Positions 13,591 through 31,456 of a stretch of DNA of 41,451 bases are shown piece after piece. The notes beneath the pieces were generated by a model. That model was given only the letters and a program-made list of their open reading frames with translations. It ran no database searches and was not told the origin of the DNA. Both the position numbers and the translations under genes were made by a program. This stretch comes from Candidatus Poribacteria bacterium. Lineage in GTDB: Bacteria > Poribacteria > WGA-4E > UBA9662. The stretch lies in NCBI GenBank assembly GCA_036339735.1, contig JAYZAL010000004.1:1-41451 (forward strand). The letters are read 5' to 3'. Positions within the stretch are counted from its first letter, which is position 1; the number at the start of each line of letters is the position of its first letter.

Positions 13591-16500
13591 GTGAACACCA
13601 CAACCAATCTGATCTTGGGCAAAATTATACACGAGGTGGAATCACGCTTGTCATTAGCAAGTCTCCATTTGCAGCAAGCAAAGATCATTTCTGGCTTAGT
13701 AATGGTCTTTGTATACACATTAGCTTTGGTGGTCATTTTGGGTTTAGTAGATTTGCTAATTCCGTTACCTTCTTTTGCAAGGTTTACAATCCTAATTTCC
13801 CTTGCTATGTTATTTGTCTGGTCCATTTGGTTTCGTGTGGTTGTTAATTGTATTCGATCATATGGCTCTATTAGTAGAACAAAGATATCCTCAACTGGAA
13901 GAAGATCGATTATCAGCACTTGTCCAAATAAGTCAGAATGAGCCTGAAGATGTTGTTCAACGTCAGATCTGGGATCGCTTAGCTAAAGACGTAGGAAGTG
14001 CTATCAATAATATAGATTTTACATCGGTTGTTGATCTACAATATCGGAACCGGATTATTTTTTCCGCAATCCTTCTTTTGATGGGTATCGGATTATTGGT
14101 AACGCACTTTCCAGAACAGACAGAGACTTCTAGCTGTCGTATCTTGATGCCTTGGCAACGAAGTTTACCGGTCTTAGCCACGCAGTTTTGAACCTGGTAA
14201 TGCCCGATTATTAAGAGGTAGTAGCTTACTGCTTAGTGTTAATACCAGTGGGTGCAGGGAAAAGCCTATTTATTATTGCTATTTTCCAAAATCTTGACCG
14301 AACCGAATCTCGTGTCAAGCAAAGTGAATCTTCAAGTGTGGAAGTTTTGTTGCACCAAACGATTGAAAACCAGTTTGCTTATGAACACCTCAATTTGCAG
14401 TCAGATTTCAGATATTACCTATTGATCGATGGGAGAAAATCTGAAATGTATACGGTGCGGGTTTTTGCCCCTCCAGTTTTAGTAAACATTGATGTCGACT
14501 ACCAATACCCAACTTACACTGGGTTCCAACCCATAACCCAATATAACAATGGCAATCTAGAAGGAGTTGATGGTACTTTCGCTACCATTCGATTATTAAC
14601 TATAAATTAAAAAATAGCCAATGCTAATATCCAATTCAACCCAAATAAGCCAATTCCGATTAAAATTTTGGATACTAACACTTTACAATACCGCTATCGT
14701 CTACGGCTAGACGAACACACTACTCAAGATCCAATCGAACAAACATACGAAATTAGAATAGAATGTGTGGATGTTTTTTCTAATAAAGAACCAATCAGTT
14801 TTACCAAATACTGGTAATGTCCGATAAAAAGCCAACAATTAAAATAACTGAGCCTAATCGGGACCTTCGTGTGACGCAGTTGTCTGAAGTGGTGATCAAA
14901 ACTGATATAGGAGACGATTTTGGGTTGTAATCGGTTCAGTTTTTACATCAAAGGTGTGGCGGAAAAACTGTGGTTCTCGAACCTGAATCGAGCGATGAAT
15001 GGAACTTTAACGTGCAAATAAGTAAAAGGCGACAAAGACAAAAGTATGCTCTGCAACTCGAAAAACTTGACCTTTCTAGTGATGATGTGATCACCTATTC
15101 AATTTTAGCACTTGACACCTTGAATCAACCTATTTATTCAAATATTTATTTTATCGAGATTAAACCACTGAACGAAAAATACCAAAATAGAACTGGATAC
15201 TTGACTGGATTAATAGTTGATGAGTCGTTGTTGGAATTAGTTAAGGAGCAGAAAAATGTTATTCGGCAAACGTGGAAATATATATTATTTAACTTCCCCA
15301 AAAATACATCAGTTCAAACAATCAAAAGAGAACAAAGCACAATACAAAAAAACAACAGATATTAAAGAAAATTAAGCGCTCCACGGTAGCTCTAACTGTT
15401 GAACCAGAGGTATTATTACTAATAGGAGAAGCCTGTGAGAAAATGAAAATAGTGATTGATCAACTCGCCAATAACCGACTACAGTCAGCATTAATCTCCC
15501 AACAGTCTGCTTTGGAAAGACTAGCCAAATCTACTACAAAGTTGAAAACGCTAAAAACTTACGCAAAAAAATGGGATATGGCTGGCTATTTTGAGCTAGA
15601 AAAAATAAGTCATTCACAAGGTCAGCTAGAAGCAATTCAGCCTACTGAAGATTCGCAAATTCAGCAACAATTACAGGTATTGTTACATGCGGTTCGCAAA
15701 AAACAACAACAACAAACTCTGACTGAGTTGTATCAGGATTTAGCTCAACAATTGACCAAATTAGCATTCGATGAGCAGAATATTACGAAGAGAACCAACC
15801 AGCACCAACTAAATCTGGCTCAAATAACCCAAGATTTAGTTGGTCAAATGCCTATTGGATCTGAATTTTTGTCCAAAAAACAAATTCACCAATCCTTCAG
15901 GTTACATCTAAAATCAATGGCTAAACTGCAGAGTCGAGTTGCACAAGAGATCAATCGATCTCAGATTCGGATGGCACTAGCTTTCGCTACAAAAGCCGGG
16001 GATAAACTAGAAGAAGTAGTACAACAATTAGAGCAAATTCAAATTCAGCAAGTCCAAAAGGCATTAGAACAGGTGCAAGTTGAACTTTGCAACCTAATGG
16101 AACGGCAGAAATGGCTACAGGAATGGACAGCCAGTTTTGATCAAGCGGTATCTCATCAAGGGCAAAATGACTACTATCCAAATTTATATGATAGTAAGAA
16201 ACCTATAGAATTGACCCAAAACCAAATTTACATTCAAAAAAAATAACGATATTGAATACCGTCTGTCCAACCTCCAGGAAAATATGGAACAAAGTAAACA
16301 GACTGAAGCGCCCCAATCAGTTTCGAAAACAATTGAGCGATTATCCCAAGGTGGTATTCAGGAAGTGACAAGCAAAATCCAAATAGACTTGGGTCGAAAT
16401 AAATTTGATGAAGCCCAACAAAATCAAGGTCAAATCGTTGTTTCTATGGGAATAGCTGTCGAATATCTTTACCAAGCAGAAGAAAAAATGATTCAAACCA

Positions 16501-16783
16501 ACTTAAAAAGCCAATGAAAAGTCTATGTCTATCCTCATGGTTGTCGAAAGAGTCTAGCCGATTGCTATTGGAAGCAGTAAACTCTTTGTGCCAAATTTCA
16601 GATAGTAAACTATCTGTTAATGGCGAGCTTATTATTAACAATATCCGTCAAGTCAAGCAACTTCTAAATCTTCGGTTAGCAAAGATCAGAAGAAGAGAGA
16701 ATTTATCTCAGCTATTAGCAGGTAAAGTAGATGTTGAGTATTGTCACCCTGTCAAACAATATTACGAGGAGATTTCCCGTTGA
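13591..16783 (+). pseudogene. Fragmented DUF4175-like membrane-anchored coiled-coil protein
   Basis: Successive frames give 2 TM helices, EQRYPQLEEDRLSAL, a TM helix, EPGNARLLRG, PP..YQYPTYTG, DKKPTIKITEPNRD..DDFGL, a Q/E-rich coiled coil and the VEY..VKQYYEEISR terminus. In-frame TAA at 14608 and 14928, plus several frameshifts. Confidence 0.75.
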
Positions 16784-17604
16784 GTAAGAGAACAAAAGTA
16801 GGTTTAACCTCTTCCCAAAGACTACACTTTGATATTTATGGTTTTGTCGTTCTAAAGCAGGTACTAACCAAAAATGAGATTAGAGAACTTTATCAATCGC
16901 TGCAGTTAGCAAAGTCAATGATTGATAAAGGTTCTGAACTTTCTCCTATCTATACTCATCGTATCGGGAAACATCATATACTGATGGGTAACTTAATCCA
17001 GTACCATAAATCATTATTAGACTATGCGGTTCATCCTAAATTGATTCCATTGGTTGAGGATGTTGTGGGTGGCGAAGTACGACTGGAAGAAACCGAAGCC
17101 ATCATTAACCGAAGAGACCCAGAAAAGAACCCTCCTAAAGTAAATTTGCAAAGATATCAACCAACAGCTTTTCATCGAGGTACCAAACATGGTTGGGGGA
17201 CATATATCGAACAAGACAAGTTTCACTGTGTGTTTGTTAAAACCTTAGCTTATCTAACTGATGTAGGACGAGATGACGGTGGAACTACTCTAATTCCTGG
17301 GAGCCACAAATTAACTTGGCCCGAAAAAGATATAGTTGAAGCCGCACTAGCAGACGATAATCTTCTTTATCAAATTGAAGCCAAAGCTGGTGATATATTA
17401 TTATTTGCTGAATCATTGATTCATAGTACTACTGCTATTCGTTCTGAAAATGAACGAACAATTTTAGTTGCTGGTTATACACCGACTATGTTTCAGCCTT
17501 GGCCTGGGAATGAGGTCGACCCTGAATTTATCGCCTCACTACCGCCGGAAATTCAGCCTATTATATCTGGTAGCTCCAGCTGGCACTGGCGACGTAATTA
17601 TTAA
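16780..17604 (+). CDS. Phytanoyl-CoA dioxygenase (PhyH)-fold Fe(II)/2OG enzyme with an HxG motif
   Basis: FDIYGFVVLKQVL, YLTDVG..DGGT.LIPGSHK, AGDILLF.E.LIH..ER; iron motif FHRG. Start placed at TTG 16780 (GAGGAG at 16766-16771) rather than 16741. Confidence 0.88.
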   Translation: MSKRTKVGLTSSQRLHFDIYGFVVLKQVLTKNEIRELYQSLQLAKSMIDKGSELSPIYTHRIGKHHILMGNLIQYHKSLLDYAVHPKLIPLVEDVVGGEVRLEETEAIINRRDPEKNPPKVNLQRYQPTAFHRGTKHGWGTYIEQDKFHCVFVKTLAYLTDVGRDDGGTTLIPGSHKLTWPEKDIVEAALADDNLLYQIEAKAGDILLFAESLIHSTTAIRSENERTILVAGYTPTMFQPWPGNEVDPEFIASLPPEIQPIISGSSSWHWRRNY

Positions 17605-17648
17605 AAAATCACAAGAATAAAATAGAAATTAATTTGGAAGGTAAAAAG

Positions 17649-18875
17649 ATGCTAGAGGAACTAACAGTTGTTGTCGATGGACAAATTTATGCTCCGGAAA
17701 TACTTGATCAAAAAAATATTTTCATTGAAGGAGGAAAAATTAAAAAAATCTCGACAGATAAACCTCCTAACCACGCAAAAATTATAAATGCTGATGGGTT
17801 GTTGGTAATACCCGGCTTAATAGATGCTTTGGTGCATGGTGGTGGCGGGCGACACACGATGACTGGCGATCCGGCAGATATTGCTCATATTGCACGCACT
17901 CACGCTAGGCACGGAGTTACTTCTGTGCTGATGGCGACTTCATCAGCTAAAATGGAAGAAATTGAGGTTTCTTTAGCTGCAATTGCTCATATTGTCGATA
18001 ATCCAATAAAAAATGGAGCTAACGTGTTGGGGGCCTATGTAGAAGGTAAATTTGGCTGTTTAGAAAAATGTGGAGCACAAAACCCCGACACGATGAGTCC
18101 ACCTAATTTTGAAGAGCTTCACCGAATGTGGGAGCATTCTGACGGAACCTTGAAGGTAATTTCCATCGCACCTGAAAGGGACCCTGGTTTGGCTTTCACC
18201 AAACACTTGTCTGACCAATCAGCAGAAAATTATAATGATATAGTCGTTGCTTTGGGACATACTAATGCTAGTTATGATTTGGCAAAATCTGCTATTGATA
18301 GTGGAATCACAAGGGCCACTCATACTTTTAATGGTATGAGTGGAATGCACCACAGGCAATTGGGTGTTCTAGAAGCAGTGCTTGCAAGCAACAGTATTCA
18401 CGCAGAGCTGATTTGCGATGGTCACCACGTTGCTCCAATCTGGGGTAAAAACCTGATTAGAATAAAAGGAGAGGAAAATGTAGGTTTAGTGTCTGATTGT
18501 TTAGAATTTGCAGGTATACCCGCCGAACAATGGCAGCAAGACTTCATTTGGCACCCCGAAATTAATGCTTGGCAGTCAAGAAAAGAACCTGAACGTTACA
18601 TTCGGAATGGTGCTATGTGGAATGATGTTGGAACTGAGGTGGAGACTCTATACGGAAGCAAAATTACTTTAATGGAAGGATTACGAAATGTAATCAGCTG
18701 GGGTATCCCATTAAATAAAGCAGTCATGATGGCAACTCTTACTCCAGCCCAGAATCTGCGAATCGATAACAAAAAAGGATCCATAAGTGAAGGCCGGGAT
18801 GCTGATTTAGTTTTACTCACCCCAAACTTAGAAGTACAGTCAGTTTTAGTCAATGGTCAATCAATTGAAATTTAA
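17649..18875 (+). CDS. nagA: N-acetylglucosamine-6-phosphate deacetylase family amidohydrolase (divergent)
   Basis: PGLID..VHGGGG, VEG, IAPE, LGHTNA, ATHTFNGM, ICDGHHV, LVSD, GRDADLV. ATG at 17649 is preceded by GGAAGG; alternative TTG start at 17634. Confidence 0.8.
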   Translation: MLEELTVVVDGQIYAPEILDQKNIFIEGGKIKKISTDKPPNHAKIINADGLLVIPGLIDALVHGGGGRHTMTGDPADIAHIARTHARHGVTSVLMATSSAKMEEIEVSLAAIAHIVDNPIKNGANVLGAYVEGKFGCLEKCGAQNPDTMSPPNFEELHRMWEHSDGTLKVISIAPERDPGLAFTKHLSDQSAENYNDIVVALGHTNASYDLAKSAIDSGITRATHTFNGMSGMHHRQLGVLEAVLASNSIHAELICDGHHVAPIWGKNLIRIKGEENVGLVSDCLEFAGIPAEQWQQDFIWHPEINAWQSRKEPERYIRNGAMWNDVGTEVETLYGSKITLMEGLRNVISWGIPLNKAVMMATLTPAQNLRIDNKKGSISEGRDADLVLLTPNLEVQSVLVNGQSIEI

Positions 18876-25829: not shown

Positions 25830-27125
25830 GTGATTTCAATTTTTAGCTCTCATTATTCAGATCAGAAATCAAAAAGGCTACAGGAGATCGCAGCGAGTCT
25901 TTATCAGACTTATAACCAAGTAGAACTACTAGCACTTAGGATTGAGTCAGTAGATCCTCAAATTCTGTCTCAGTTGTCGGGGCGAGGGTTTGTCAATCGA
26001 GATATACTAGAGACGATTCTAGGTAATTTGCTCGAACTAGTAGCACCAGGGTCGCATAACGCTGTAGCTTTAACGAAATTAAAATCTACCTTTAGGCAAT
26101 CCCTAGAGGAGATGGTTGATCAGCTTTATGCTATGGTCGTACAGTCTTTTTTAGCCGTTGGTGATGCTGATGTTGCAGAAGAGATGTCGGTTGCTACAAC
26201 TTTTGACTTTTTTCGGCGACTGCCAAAATTGAAGGAAAGGGCTTTCTGGAATCGTTTTGCTTCTTTGAAGGATCCGGCAGTTTGGGATGCTTATCTAAAC
26301 CGAAAATATAAAAAAAACTTGGATCCTCATGACTGTGAATTCGGAAAGTCAGATTCTTTAGCAGAAGTTAACATTAGAAAACGTATAGATCAATCCATCC
26401 TGGAAAGAAATCCACACTCTTACAACCGATTCTTAGCCGAATCAAATTTCCAGCAGGCTTTCGACTATCAGATGCAACTGGTAATGAGTAGTTATCCCGG
26501 TTGGAGAGTTCAGTTTTATCATGATGTCGCCCACTCACTGGCTACGTCGAGTGTTGGATCTGTACCACTTTTACCTCGAGTAATTTCTGAGTTAGGTGGT
26601 CGATATTACCAAGCCGATCTTCACCCTGAAACACAAATTGGTGATGCTAATTTCTTCGATCATACACACCGAGGTATCACTACAGGTCAAACCGGTGTCA
26701 TTGGCTCTGGCTGTGTGATTTATCCGTGTACACTAGGTGGGTTATCGGTGAAAAATCAAGCTCGGCACCCGACAATTGGTGATTTTGTTCAGATTAGCAC
26801 TGACGTTGGTATTTTTGGTCGGGTGGATATCGGAAATTATTCAGTAATTGGTGCAAACACTGAGATATATGGTCTAATTCAGGTCGGTCGTGAGGTAAGA
26901 ATTGGTTCTTCAGTTGTGATTGGTACTGTAAAGCCCGGCGCAACAGCCAACCGTTCAGAAGTTCAACCTGGATCGATTCGCATTGGCGATCAAGTTCGGA
27001 TCGGTGATGGGGCCGTAATTGAAAACAGTGTATCCTCTGATTTGATTATTCCCCATAACTCGACTATTCCAACTCGTAGTTACGTAATAAATGACGGGGA
27101 AGGGACTCCGAAATTTGTCAGCTAA
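25830..27125 (+). CDS. Serine O-acetyltransferase (CysE)-like left-handed beta-helix acyltransferase with a long N-terminal extension
   Basis: ADLHPETQIG..FFDH..G..TGQT.VIG..C.IY..TLGG..RHPTIGD, followed by more hexapeptide repeats. Confidence 0.7.
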   Translation: MISIFSSHYSDQKSKRLQEIAASLYQTYNQVELLALRIESVDPQILSQLSGRGFVNRDILETILGNLLELVAPGSHNAVALTKLKSTFRQSLEEMVDQLYAMVVQSFLAVGDADVAEEMSVATTFDFFRRLPKLKERAFWNRFASLKDPAVWDAYLNRKYKKNLDPHDCEFGKSDSLAEVNIRKRIDQSILERNPHSYNRFLAESNFQQAFDYQMQLVMSSYPGWRVQFYHDVAHSLATSSVGSVPLLPRVISELGGRYYQADLHPETQIGDANFFDHTHRGITTGQTGVIGSGCVIYPCTLGGLSVKNQARHPTIGDFVQISTDVGIFGRVDIGNYSVIGANTEIYGLIQVGREVRIGSSVVIGTVKPGATANRSEVQPGSIRIGDQVRIGDGAVIENSVSSDLIIPHNSTIPTRSYVINDGEGTPKFVS

Positions 27126-27187
27126 CTCTAGAATTACTTCATACAATATAACCTTAGACATACAAACTAATGCATGAGGCAAGACAA

Positions 27188-28111
27188 ATGGACAACATAT
27201 GGTTATTTTCGAACCAAGGAATTTTAGACACGAAGGGTAATCAAGTCGACAATGTACCATTTCAAGAGCCTGTTATTGCCAGCGCTGTCAATAATGATCA
27301 AATAGCTATCGTTGTCGATTGGCATCAAGTTTGGGTTTATCAGGATAAACGCTGGGAGCAAATTGCTAAGACAGATTGGAAAGTTCAATGTATCTGTTGG
27401 ATGGAAAATGGTGAATTACTTGTTGGGACTAATGAAGCTAGAGTTGCAACACTTAAAAACAACCAACTTAATTTTTTGGCTGGCTTTGACCACGTTCCTG
27501 ACCGAAAGTTGTGGACAACGCCCTGGGGAGGACCACCTGATATACGCTCTTTTGCGACAGCTGCAGATGGAACACTCTATGCCAATATTCACGTCGGCTG
27601 GATTGCACAATCGAAGGATAATGGTCAATCGTGGAATAATCTCAAGGAGGGATTAGAAATGGATGTGCATCAGGTCGTCGTCAATCCCAAAGATCCTTCG
27701 ATTGTCATTGCAGCCACGGCAAGCGGGTTTTATTACAGTCATAACGCAGGGAAAACCTTTGCTTGTACAAGTCAAGACTTACCTCACCATTACCAACGTG
27801 CTTGTGCCGTGTTTCCTTCTGGAAAAGTTTTCTTGACCTCGATTTCTCGCGGTCCGAGTGGTGGCTCTGCTAACTTATATCGTAGTTCAGACAACGGACA
27901 AAATTGGCAACAAGTTAAAGGGTTACCCAGTCAGATTGTGCGTAACATAAATACCTTCCAAATTGTTGTAACTGGTAGAGAATCAGCTCTGGTAATTATT
28001 GAAGATAATCAACTTTATGAAACTACAGATTTAGGGGTTAATTGGCGCAAAGTCGAAACTCAATTTCCGCATTTGTATGGAGCAGTCGTTGTGCAACAAT
28101 CACTCAATTAG
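27188..28111 (+). CDS. BNR/Asp-box beta-propeller protein
   Basis: Asp-boxes SKDNGQSW, SHNAGKTF, SSDNGQNW, TTDLGVNW; WTTPWGGPPDIRS, DVHQV. GAGG precedes ATG 27188; alternative start at 27170. Confidence 0.8.
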   Translation: MDNIWLFSNQGILDTKGNQVDNVPFQEPVIASAVNNDQIAIVVDWHQVWVYQDKRWEQIAKTDWKVQCICWMENGELLVGTNEARVATLKNNQLNFLAGFDHVPDRKLWTTPWGGPPDIRSFATAADGTLYANIHVGWIAQSKDNGQSWNNLKEGLEMDVHQVVVNPKDPSIVIAATASGFYYSHNAGKTFACTSQDLPHHYQRACAVFPSGKVFLTSISRGPSGGSANLYRSSDNGQNWQQVKGLPSQIVRNINTFQIVVTGRESALVIIEDNQLYETTDLGVNWRKVETQFPHLYGAVVVQQSLN

Positions 28112-28122
28112 TAGGATAAAAT

Positions 28123-29688
28123 ATGATTTTTGATCTTATTCTTCAGGGTGGAACTATAATCGATGGGACTGGTCACCAGCCAGCATTTTCTGCTGATATT
28201 GGTATTATTGGTGAACAGATCGTGGCTATAACTGATCTGAGTGAACATATTCGTTCTAATAGATACAGTCAGGTAATAGACGCAACTAATCAGGTTATTT
28301 GTCCTGGTTTTATCGATGTACATGTTCACTCAGAAATTTCTCTTCTTGGTGGTCGAGACCAATACGCAGGCATTTTGCAAGGAGTTACAACACAACTGCT
28401 CGCACCGGACGGCTTTGGGTGGTCGGGATTGAAGCCCAAAGCAGCTCGTCAATTCTGGCATTACACACAATTTGCATACGGTGAATTACCTGCCGAATTG
28501 CAAAATCTCAATTGGCCACATCCAGAAGATTATCTCGATGTATTTAGAGGACGAATACCTGCTAATGTATGTCCTCAAGTACCGCATTGTGCAGTCCGTT
28601 TAGCTGTAATGGGCTGGGAGAATCGTCCTGCTACCGTGGAAGAATTAAGTCGTATGGAACGCTTGACCGAGATCTGGATGGAAGTAGGAGCTGTAGGCAT
28701 ATGTCTCGGGTTAGATTACCAGCCAAGTGCAAACGCTGATATTAATGAGTTAGTCACGCTATGCCGGACAGTTCAATCTCATGGTGGCATTTATGCTGCT
28801 CACATCCGTTATGAACTCCTAGGTCGTACAAAGGCGTGGCAGGAAACAATTGATATTAGTCGCCAAGCTAATATACCGGTTCATATTTCACATGAACGTG
28901 TAGATTCAACCACGCGAAATATATTAGAACAAGTCGATCAAGAGAGCATTGATTTGACTTTCGAGTCCTACCTATATCCTGCTGGTATGACCCATCTGGC
29001 AATGCGTTTGCCAATGGATTTGCAAATTGGCACTCCTGCAGAGATGATCAATCGACTCCGTCAGGACAAGGCTAAGGATAGGGCTATCCGCTTTCTGGAA
29101 ACTAATTTAGAAACTGATCGATCGATTATTGGCTATACAAAATCTGGCAAGTACGTTGGTTTGCCGCTTTCCTTAGCCGCTAAAGATGCTGGCCAGCCTG
29201 TCGCTGAGTTCGCCTACAATTTAGTTGTAGAGGAAGAAGGAATCGAAACCTTAATCATGTTCTGGCCAATACCACCGAATGAAGCCGAGTCAGTATTAAA
29301 TGAAACCGCTGTCCACCCTCGAATGATGGTCGCTAGTGATGGTATATACGAAATCCCCCACCCCCATCCTAGAGGGTATGGGTGTTTTGCCCAATTTATT
29401 CGTAAGTTTGTGAGAGAAAGCAAATTGCTAACTTTGGAGCAAGCAATTTGGAAAATGAGTGGCTTCCCAGCAAAACGGTTTGGGTTAAAAGGTCGGGGGG
29501 AAATCAAAGAAGGGTCGAGTGCGGACTTAGTCGTGTTTGATCCTACCAGCATTGCTGACCGATCAACCTGGGCTGATCCAATCCAACCTGCTATTGGCTT
29601 GAATTATGTTCTAGTTAATGGAGAAATCGTTTTAGCCAAAGGAACAATTACTTCCCATTTGCCAGGACGTATTCTACGCCGATCGTAA
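28123..29688 (+). CDS. N-acyl-D-amino-acid deacylase-like amidohydrolase
   Basis: GGTIIDGTG, PGFIDVHVHS, YAAHIR, VHISH, ASDG, HPRGYG.F, ADLVVFDP, VLVNG. Confidence 0.88.
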   Translation: MIFDLILQGGTIIDGTGHQPAFSADIGIIGEQIVAITDLSEHIRSNRYSQVIDATNQVICPGFIDVHVHSEISLLGGRDQYAGILQGVTTQLLAPDGFGWSGLKPKAARQFWHYTQFAYGELPAELQNLNWPHPEDYLDVFRGRIPANVCPQVPHCAVRLAVMGWENRPATVEELSRMERLTEIWMEVGAVGICLGLDYQPSANADINELVTLCRTVQSHGGIYAAHIRYELLGRTKAWQETIDISRQANIPVHISHERVDSTTRNILEQVDQESIDLTFESYLYPAGMTHLAMRLPMDLQIGTPAEMINRLRQDKAKDRAIRFLETNLETDRSIIGYTKSGKYVGLPLSLAAKDAGQPVAEFAYNLVVEEEGIETLIMFWPIPPNEAESVLNETAVHPRMMVASDGIYEIPHPHPRGYGCFAQFIRKFVRESKLLTLEQAIWKMSGFPAKRFGLKGRGEIKEGSSADLVVFDPTSIADRSTWADPIQPAIGLNYVLVNGEIVLAKGTITSHLPGRILRRS

Positions 29689-29694
29689 GCGGAG

Positions 29695-30573
29695 CTATAG
29701 AGTAGATAACTTAAATAACCGTTGAGGTTGCGGATGACGTGTTGTAGGAATTCCATGCTCTTGGCACCATTCTTTAAGTGGGTTTCTTGTTCCACCGGGT
29801 AGAAATTCTTCTACTTCTTCAATGGGTTCACCTACTAAATACCGTTGGAGAGGAGTTAACTTGTCTAGGAAATCTGTTGCTTGAGTAACAAAGTCCATTG
29901 GTACCACCCATCTATAGCCGTAACCAATCATAATGGCTTTTCTGACGCTCGGACCACGATGAATGGCTCCAGCGTGGAACGTTCGGTTTTCGAAAATTAA
30001 GCAATCACCAGCTTTCAGGCTTGGCTCAACAGCAGTAGGAGGATCAACTTGTCCTTTTGGTAAGTTCAGGTTACCTTCCAAGTGGTTACTGCCTGCAGCA
30101 ACCATTGTCGCCCCCCTTTTCGGTTTTCTAAGATCGGTCAGATAGTAAGCACATTTGACTAGTAGGCGGGGAATGGCCGCGTTACCCATATCTCTTGTGG
30201 CTTGCAGGTAATCGCGGTGCCAACCGGGATGGCGATGTGTGTCCGGGAGGTTCGCTGGATCGGGGTATTTGTAGATAAGATGTGAAGTCATAATTTGTAA
30301 GTTTGCTCCAAGCAACTGCAGTACAACTGGTAAAATTTCTGACCAATCGATCAGGCGAATAAAGGCATCGTCTAGCGTAATCGAATTTCGAAAACTATCG
30401 TACTGATCCCCGCCTTTCTGCCGAAGTTTAGTCCGGTTACTATGGATTAATCGATCACCAGCTTCAATGAGTGTAGAAATAGTATCTTCATCTAGAACAT
30501 TTCGGATAATCAAGTATCCGTTTTGGTCAAAAAAATCAATATCTGTTTTACTAACAGCTTTGAATTCGATCAT
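29695..30573 (-). CDS. Phytanoyl-CoA dioxygenase family Fe(II)/2OG oxygenase with the canonical HxD motif
   Basis: FFDQNGYLII, WHRD, YYLTD, AGSN, AGDCLIFENRTFHAG..RK. Confidence 0.9.
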   Translation of the reverse strand: MIEFKAVSKTDIDFFDQNGYLIIRNVLDEDTISTLIEAGDRLIHSNRTKLRQKGGDQYDSFRNSITLDDAFIRLIDWSEILPVVLQLLGANLQIMTSHLIYKYPDPANLPDTHRHPGWHRDYLQATRDMGNAAIPRLLVKCAYYLTDLRKPKRGATMVAAGSNHLEGNLNLPKGQVDPPTAVEPSLKAGDCLIFENRTFHAGAIHRGPSVRKAIMIGYGYRWVVPMDFVTQATDFLDKLTPLQRYLVGEPIEEVEEFLPGGTRNPLKEWCQEHGIPTTRHPQPQRLFKLSTL

Positions 30574-30670
30574 AATTCTTATCTCTTTTTGGCTTTTTGC
30601 ATTCTAATAAGAATGTAAGAAATTTGGTAGCACTATTACTGTAATTTAATATAAGACAAAATCAAATTAT

Positions 30671-31456
30671 TTATCTTTTGAGAGTGGCCCATTTAGTAGC
30701 TAGTTTTTCTCTAGACTCTACGACGAAAAAGACGCCCTTCTGCATATCTGATTTAATTTCATCTGTAGTTAGTGCACGATCATAAATTGCTACCTCGTCA
30801 ATTCTTCCGACTATGCCAGGCAGACCGGTTTGAGCTTTTCCTATATGAAGCTCAACTTTTTGGCTAGTGATTTCCCTACCTGGAATTTTCAAAGAGGCAT
30901 CAAGTTTTCCATTCACGTATTGTTTGATTTCATTTCCATCATACATCGCTACTACATGGTGCCATTTTTCCAGCCTAGGTTCAGTCTTTTGTAAATTACG
31001 GGTTCCTTGCCATACTGGTAGCCCGATCCAAGTTTCAATTTTGGCTGCAGCCCCTAAACTACTCCATTGCATGCAGTAACCACCCACATTAGCAGCGGTT
31101 CGTCGGCCTATCACATTGGAATCTTTTTGATTCACTAAAGGAAAAATCCAAGCTGCTATAGTAATAGATTTAGTAATATTAAGTTCGTCAGTTGCAGGTA
31201 ACTGAACTAAGGAATTTGAGTCTTCTAAAGAAAGGGCTCCACCAAACTTACCATTTTTCACAAATTTGGCGTTTCCGCTTAGTTTTCCTCTTAACCCGCT
31301 TTTACTATGATCTTTAGCTATTTTACCTTTCTCTTCATCAAATGCTAAATAAAGCTTTAGGGATGAATCATTATTGAGGGCAATGCTATCAGACAAGAGA
31401 ATAACTAAAATTAATAAAAAGCAAAGCATTATCAGCCAAAAATATCTCTTAACCAT
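30671..31456 (-). CDS. Secreted LamG/concanavalin A-like domain protein with a C-terminal KLATKW motif
   Basis: Signal peptide, LYLAFDE..G..AKDHS, GKFGGAL, TIAAWI, WHHVV..YDG..YVNG, IDEVAIYDRALT; ends VVESREKLATKWATLKR. Confidence 0.9.
   Translation of the reverse strand: MVKRYFWLIMLCFLLILVILLSDSIALNNDSSLKLYLAFDEEKGKIAKDHSKSGLRGKLSGNAKFVKNGKFGGALSLEDSNSLVQLPATDELNITKSITIAAWIFPLVNQKDSNVIGRRTAANVGGYCMQWSSLGAAAKIETWIGLPVWQGTRNLQKTEPRLEKWHHVVAMYDGNEIKQYVNGKLDASLKIPGREITSQKVELHIGKAQTGLPGIVGRIDEVAIYDRALTTDEIKSDMQKGVFFVVESREKLATKWATLKR

Follow-up and report, generated by a model that had tools for sequence, protein, structure and literature searches.

A PhyH-fold oxygenase of Poribacteria with an H-x-G motif and a probable HygX-type metal site

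The canonical hydroxylases of the PhyH fold, among them EctD, GriE, proline hydroxylase H11 and human PHYH, carry an H-x-D/E motif together with a distal His, and have no carboxylate four residues ahead of that His. Fe(II)/2-oxoglutarate (2OG) radical halogenases are defined, in the available portion of a recent article, by a two-His site without a further coordinating Asp or Glu (Kipouros and Chang, Nature 2026, PMC13489965). A third arrangement is found in HygX, the orthoester-forming Fe(II)/2OG oxygenase that takes part in hygromycin B biosynthesis in Streptomyces hygroscopicus (PDB 4XC9, 4XCA, 4XCB and 4ZPI). According to an excerpt of a 2026 review, HygX binds its metal through H-X-G ... 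E-X3-H, a motif in which the acidic residue has been relocated (PMC13374393). Here we describe a gene for a PhyH-fold oxygenase in a 41,451-nt stretch of DNA from a Candidatus Poribacteria bacterium (contig JAYZAL010000004.1; the whole stretch is termed the window). Its product reads H-x-G at the proximal motif and probably has a metal site of the HygX type.

The oxygenase and its nearest relative of solved structure

The gene and the residues on which the comparison with HygX turns are as follows.

16780..17604, plus strand: PhyH-fold oxygenase gene, 274 amino acids, TTG start and TAA stop (open reading frame list and translation)
17173..17181, plus strand: H132-R133-G134, the proximal iron-binding His and the Gly at the place of the canonical Asp/Glu (codon reading and orthologue alignment)
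17239..17241, plus strand: K154, aligned to Lys137 of HygX (F-V-K-T-L against Y-V-K-A-L)
17410..17424, plus strand: E211-S-L-I-H215 (E-x3-H), which holds the distal His and the carboxylate proposed to be a relocated ligand (alignment to HygX)
17455..17457, plus strand: R226 (cga), the presumed 2OG C5-carboxylate-binding Arg, aligned to the Arg of HygX

The oxygenase belongs to Pfam family PF05721 (PhyH), which it matches with E 1.3e-12 and 48.8 bits against a gathering cut-off of 22, over residues 18-227 and profile positions 2-212 of 213. Its AlphaFold2 (AF2) model shows the double-stranded β-helix (DSBH) fold with a mean predicted local distance difference test score (pLDDT) of 88.7. The start at 16780 is favoured over an earlier in-frame TTG at 16741, since 274-residue homologues (P0001 and P0003) and the gene of the related locus L002 agree with it. 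The codons ttt cat cga ggt (17170-17181) encode F131-H132-R133-G134; E211 is gaa at 17410-17412 and H215 is cat at 17422-17424, in the local sequence A-E-S-L-I-H. These readings confirm much of what a first-pass annotation of the window had reported, namely an F-H-R-G motif with H-R-G at 17173-17181, a retained distal His at 17422 and a retained 2OG-binding Arg downstream. That annotation had also described the carboxylate as absent, which holds for the H-x-D position; it had missed the Glu that stands four residues before H215.

HygX is the nearest relative of the oxygenase with a solved structure. A phmmer search of the PDB returned it as the best match (E 1.5e-12), and a profile of the oxygenase family matched it with E 8e-17, the next entry being EctD with E 7.4e-07. 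When the AF2 model was searched with Foldseek, ranks 1-10 were all HygX chains (E about 1e-17), and VIA-align superposed 208 residues of HygX on the model with Z 22.1, a root-mean-square deviation of 2.7 Å and 27% identity. The likeness extends to the motifs: the HygX chain reads L-H-G-G and N-E-A-L-M-H-G where the oxygenase reads F-H-R-G and A-E-S-L-I-H. A gap-free alignment of the C-terminal halves sets E211, H215 and R226 on the Glu, His and Arg of HygX, and K154 on Lys137. Both proteins have the PhyH/DSBH fold, a proximal H-x-G, a Glu four residues ahead of the distal His, an Arg 11 residues past it and the aligned Lys. By its motifs, the oxygenase is HygX-type on two points, an H-X-G without a carboxylate two residues on from the His and an E-X3-H.

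The two enzymes are nevertheless distant. They share only 23-28% identity, and in HygX the stretch from H-G-G to the conserved strand that follows is about 13 residues longer than in the oxygenase. HygX, whose gene belongs to an aminoglycoside biosynthetic cluster, uses hygromycin C as its substrate, whereas no such cluster accompanies the oxygenase gene in the window or in the related loci. On the grounds of this identity, the absence of such a cluster and the position of the oxygenase in a clade apart from the HGG-type representatives, we rejected the possibility that it is a HygX orthologue, that is, an orthosomycin/aminoglycoside orthoester synthase.

A second PhyH-fold gene of the window allows a comparison with the canonical type.

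29695..30573, minus strand: canonical PhyH paralogue reading W-H-R-D (Pfam PhyH E 2.1e-15; pairwise alignment)

The product of this gene aligns with the oxygenase by BLASTP at 21% identity (E 7e-08), placing G-W-H-R-D at the H-R-G site, and has Asn at the position of E211. Its earlier designation as an internal control, on account of the W-H-R-D motif, is therefore sound. The canonical PhyH hydroxylases named above and this paralogue have the same fold as the oxygenase (Z 20-22) and share its distal His and Arg; in the placing of the carboxylate the oxygenase is the opposite of them. K154 had been a further candidate for a HygX hallmark and was rejected as not diagnostic, since the canonical paralogue shares this Lys.

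Conservation was assessed in 252 orthologue sequences, comprising 120 database proteins (55-91% identity) and 132 open reading frames (ORFs) from 130 related loci. All 252 sequences keep both H132 and G134. E211 and H215 are each present in all 245 non-gap sequences and R226 in all 244, while K154 is found in 249 of the 252. Because H132, G134, H215 and R226 are invariant to this extent, the H-x-G of the oxygenase is far beyond chance and is not a quirk of a single sequence. The orthologues form a separate, single-copy orthogroup that occurs mainly in Poribacteria and is spread over several hundred species-level genomes of this and neighbouring phyla at 55-91% identity; it is uncharacterised and strongly conserved. 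The best database match of the oxygenase, at 91% identity, is a Tara protein, and a Poribacteria label is carried by 74 of the 80 best genome loci, so that the source is marine-type, as had been supposed of a probably marine bacterium.

We consider it probable that the product of 16780-17604 is a 2-His-1-Glu Fe/2OG oxygenase of the HygX type, in which E211 would replace the missing carboxylate of H-x-D. Such an enzyme would catalyse hydroxylation or oxidative cyclisation, probably of a sugar-like or amino-acid-like substrate and perhaps in a catabolic role. It would be soluble and free-standing, with H132, H215 and the relocated carboxylate of E211 as iron ligands in place of the usual H-x-D/E, and G134 would leave room for the relocated arrangement. 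2OG would chelate the iron and be anchored by R226, a role that we take from general knowledge of the family. Activation of O2 would then produce a ferryl intermediate, which would take a hydrogen from a small polar substrate. The next event would be hydroxyl rebound or, in the manner of HygX, an oxidative cyclisation or dehydrogenation. As the iron would be surrounded by three protein ligands, bidentate 2OG and O2, no halide site would be left. Chemistry other than hydroxylation may also apply, given that the reaction of HygX is an oxidative cyclisation. The metal site of the oxygenase most likely works like that of HygX.

Breadth of the paired motif

When 1.84 billion cluster representatives were searched with a profile, 1592 proteins matched at E ≤ 0.001, 357 of them at E ≤ 1e-10. 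We analysed 150 listed matches of the 1592, of which 89 have at least 230 residues and 76 of these have both His residues aligned. Among these listed matches, 63 of the 76 have no carboxylate at position 134 and Asp or Glu at position 211. Five have H-x-D and no carboxylate at 211, four have both carboxylates and four have neither. In an 81-row tree, the window protein and its orthologues fall in a well-supported clade. The HGG-type representatives, whose motifs resemble those of HygX, lie outside it.

The same pattern prevails in the genome from which the window derives (G000; 4.32 Mb in 107 contigs, 92% complete), which contains 32 matches to the family profile. Both His residues are present in 21 of these paralogues (loci L144-L162), and 16 of the 21 have the relocated carboxylate, three are canonical, one has both carboxylates and one has neither. 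Asp variants among them read V-D-C/G-x-x-H. The relocated site is the majority type among the matched paralogues of this genome. Judged by sequence, the pairing of H-x-G with E/D-x3-H is the signature of a large superclade.

The four representatives that have neither carboxylate (P0148, P0181, P0261 and P0244) carry Gly at 134 and Gly, Gln, Ala or a gap at 211, the gap being that of P0244. Each is a lone row beside a Glu-bearing sister. These proteins are likelier to be true two-His sites than the window protein is, or else they reflect sequence or alignment errors.

Alternative readings of the metal site

The first-pass annotation had proposed that the oxygenase is a candidate radical halogenase with an open halide site. 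This proposal finds no support, as the invariant E211-x3-H215 matches the relocated ligand of HygX. A compensating carboxylate, which the same annotation had recognised would speak against a halogenase, is indicated by homology in E211 (245 of 245 sequences). The residues that it had singled out as a possible source of such a carboxylate, in the sequence L-E-E-T-E, are not the best candidates, E211 being the residue at the HygX ligand position.

A halogenase could still be accommodated if the iron were held by H132 and H215 alone, with G134 opening a halide site and E211 acting as a second-sphere or hemilabile residue in a free-standing Fe/2OG radical halogenase or other anion-transfer enzyme. 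Every known Fe/2OG halogenase bears H-x-G as its hallmark, according to the portion of the article available (PMC13489965), and the motif is invariant here; the organism is marine, so that halide is abundant. With SyrB2, CurA-Hal, WelO5, BesD, AspX and BtnX the oxygenase shares two His residues and a Gly in place of the H-x-D/E carboxylate, and like BesD, AspX and BtnX, as the same portion describes them, it is free-standing (PMC13489965). The oxygenase has the two-His site with Gly for the H-x-D/E carboxylate that marks a halogenase, but it does not appear to lack any other Asp or Glu for the metal. Unlike the radical halogenases, it carries an invariant Glu at the place of the relocated ligand of HygX, and its score against the NCBI model for SyrB2/CmaB-type 'chlorinating enzyme' (TIGR01762) is 18.1 bits, far under the cut-off of 226.3 and close to the 17.8 bits of the canonical paralogue, so that membership is not supported. 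Furthermore, 16 of 21 paralogues in a single 4.3-Mb genome, in which no natural-product context is seen, carry this motif pair, and so many halogenases would be implausible. Pfam scans of the window ORFs and of the scanned neighbours in related loci revealed no carrier protein, non-ribosomal peptide synthetase (NRPS) or polyketide synthase, which for the window agrees with the first-pass description of a free-standing enzyme with no carrier protein or NRPS nearby. The 50 rows that Foldseek or VIA-align listed include no halogenase entry, a result that we do not count as evidence. A halogenase of this kind is unlikely, and such weight as we leave on it is due to one cluster of a published atlas, which may list the orthogroup or its sisters.

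This atlas, described in the article on radical halogenases, was mined from structures and holds 946 predicted radical halogenases (PMC13489965, in the part available). Its cluster 4 (Fig. 1c source data) contains PhyH proteins of Poribacteria, Latescibacterota, Gemmatimonadota and one unclassified marine bacterium, with lengths of 268, 272 (several), 274, 276 and 277 amino acids and up to three per proteome, in the rows available (PMC13489965). These rows were 20 of the 38 Poribacteria rows of one source-data file and one further table part. The cluster may include the oxygenase family or sister families; the overlap is unproven, as the tables contain no sequences, three peptides of the family giving 0 matches in them. 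The terms 'HygX' and 'hygroscopicus' do not occur in the available parts of the atlas tables, nor does 'Dictyobacter' in that of the Fig. 1c table (PMC13489965), and HygX was therefore either not flagged or outside the data set. The Poribacteria and Latescibacterota entries of cluster 4 may themselves be HygX-type proteins and not two-His sites, because most matched PhyH paralogues in one Poribacteria genome carry E/D-x3-H.

Several observations weigh against a HygX-type site in the oxygenase. Many PhyH-fold enzymes reach Z 20.4-21.8, about 1-2 Z units from HygX, so that the structure ranking does not single HygX out. The profile hidden Markov model alignment itself did not set the H-G-G of HygX under H-R-G, and MAFFT aligned H-G-G with H-R-G only for the HGG-type representatives that resemble HygX at the motif level. 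Iron ligation by E211 is suggested by homology to HygX and by invariance. Positions 134 and 211 covary (Fisher p = 7e-4, uncorrected), yet once the tree was taken into account only four independent pairs were left, and a sign test, which was without power, gave p = 1. The five representatives with H-x-D and no Glu are one group, nested beside two rows with H-R-G and Glu; they represent one swap event, which is consistent with a need for one carboxylate and is no proof of it. The gene neighbourhood is not conserved across phyla, and no substrate can be inferred from it with confidence.

The atlas adds to these points. Its Poribacteria PhyH proteins, matched by lineage and length, may overlap the superclade with H-x-G and E/D-x3-H, and if they do, their AF2 models showed no Asp or Glu within the distance cut-off of the atlas. 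Were the overlap real, either the relocated Glu escaped this cut-off in some AlphaFold models or it truly is not a ligand. We see only a slim prospect that E211 is hemilabile or second-sphere and that the orthogroup consists of free-standing radical halogenases or anion-transfer enzymes whose substrate is a common marine metabolite. If true, the many Poribacteria paralogues with the same motif would be a large unrecognised reservoir of such enzymes, in agreement with the possible listing of these proteins in cluster 4.

It is improbable that the third ligand of a 2-His-1-carboxylate site is a different acidic residue, such as one from the strand L-E103-E104-T-E106, in place of E211. The three Glu residues of this strand are kept almost throughout (in 251, 250 and 249 of the 252 sequences, respectively), and a Glu of HygX aligns with E104. 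The N-terminal strand of PhyH-fold enzymes usually lines the substrate or 2OG pocket, however. Moreover, the HygX ligand is named as the Glu of E-X3-H in the excerpted review (PMC13374393). The most improbable alternative is that the protein is not a 2OG-dependent oxygenase at all and is either an iron-only isomerase like NvfE, whose fold is the same, or a binding protein that has lost catalysis. NvfE, a cofactor-variant relative, is among the weak PDB matches (E 5.5e-4), but both His residues, the Arg that anchors 2OG and the carboxylate show no variation in 244-252 sequences, and 55-91% identity across phyla is typical of an active enzyme.

We also considered the FJS/PHYHD1 2'-O-methyl-nucleoside demethylases, which like the oxygenase are members of PF05721 abundant in Poribacteria, and which form a separate clade. 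The tested Poribacteria enzyme of this type, which demethylates 2'-O-methyl nucleosides, reads canonical W-H-Q-D in the available part of its description (PMC12709175). This assignment was rejected, as two eight-residue peptides of the oxygenase family each gave 0 matches in the sequence table of that article as available (PMC12709175). No PHYHD1 entry was present among the PDB sequence matches obtained with phmmer or with the family profile. Two paralogues from the genome of the window, at L148 (contig C38) and L155 (contig C77), read W-H-Q-D, a likeness at the motif level to the tested enzyme as given in that part of the article (PMC12709175).

Genomic surroundings and meaning for the family

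The oxygenase gene is flanked in the window by the following genes.

13624..16783, plus strand: DUF4175-type gene in seven frame segments (tblastn of the intact orthologues from L001 and L002; Pfam DUF4175 on the L002 protein)
17634..18875, plus strand: NagA-like N-acetylglucosamine-6-phosphate deacetylase (TIGR00221, 240.1 bits against a cut-off of 225.65)

The DUF4175-type gene is broken into seven successive segments (frames 1, 2, 1, 3, 2, 3, 2) between 13624 and 16777. The TGA that ends it shares two letters with the TTG that opens the oxygenase gene (TTGA), and stop and start overlap in the close relatives L001 and L002 as well. Intact orthologues are collinear with it (1088 amino acids in L002, more than 934 in L001), and the flanking genes of the window are all intact. 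The broken gene is either a decaying pseudogene or the product of a local misassembly. Downstream, the gene that the first-pass annotation had called a divergent deacetylase does encode a deacetylase, one that passes the NCBI equivalog model for NagA. A functional link with the oxygenase was rejected, because NagA adjoins the oxygenase gene only in the window and in L001, one of the 80 related loci. Farther along the window, the canonical paralogue lies among genes for a hexapeptide-repeat transferase and for BNR/sortilin-like, Amidohydro_3 and LamG-like proteins (25830-31456), a neighbourhood of carbohydrate type.

A large ORF homologous to the DUF4175-type gene precedes the oxygenase gene in 68 of 80 loci. 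The order in Poribacteria is the DUF4175 gene (68 of 80), PPK2 (50), canonical PhyH (50), LamG-like (53) and the oxygenase, followed by a sulfatase on the opposite strand (52 of 80) and a radical-SAM (S-adenosylmethionine) maturase (18 of 80). Outside Poribacteria, we considered 20 of 50 metagenome loci, those of at least 5 kb. The Poribacteria neighbours recur in none of these 20, and the idea of a conserved operon was rejected. Genes for a sugar-type substrate-binding protein and two permeases lie upstream of the oxygenase gene in 4 of the 20 loci. Other neighbours in the metagenome loci include Gfo/Idh/MocA proteins, an aldo-keto reductase, an enolase-superfamily protein, a xylose-isomerase-like TIM barrel, dehydrogenases and M20, M24 and M55 peptidases. 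As a guide to function, these neighbourhoods go no further than to suggest that a small polar compound is catabolised.

The variant of the metal site is already known from HygX, and the oxygenase orthogroup is most likely a further case of it, of modest interest in this respect. The H-x-G motif in 2OG oxygenases is a widely used flag for radical halogenases, and the proteins described here would form a large class for which it is misleading, their carboxylate having shifted to E-x3-H in the manner of HygX. For the atlas of predicted radical halogenases (PMC13489965), this raises the question of whether its PhyH entries from Poribacteria and Latescibacterota are two-His or HygX-type proteins. 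PhyH is given as the most abundant Pfam domain in Poribacteria in the available part of an earlier study (PMC3909097). With 16 of 21 matched paralogues of one genome carrying the relocated carboxylate, knowledge of the chemistry at the relocated site would account for a sizeable part of the PhyH expansion in Poribacteria.

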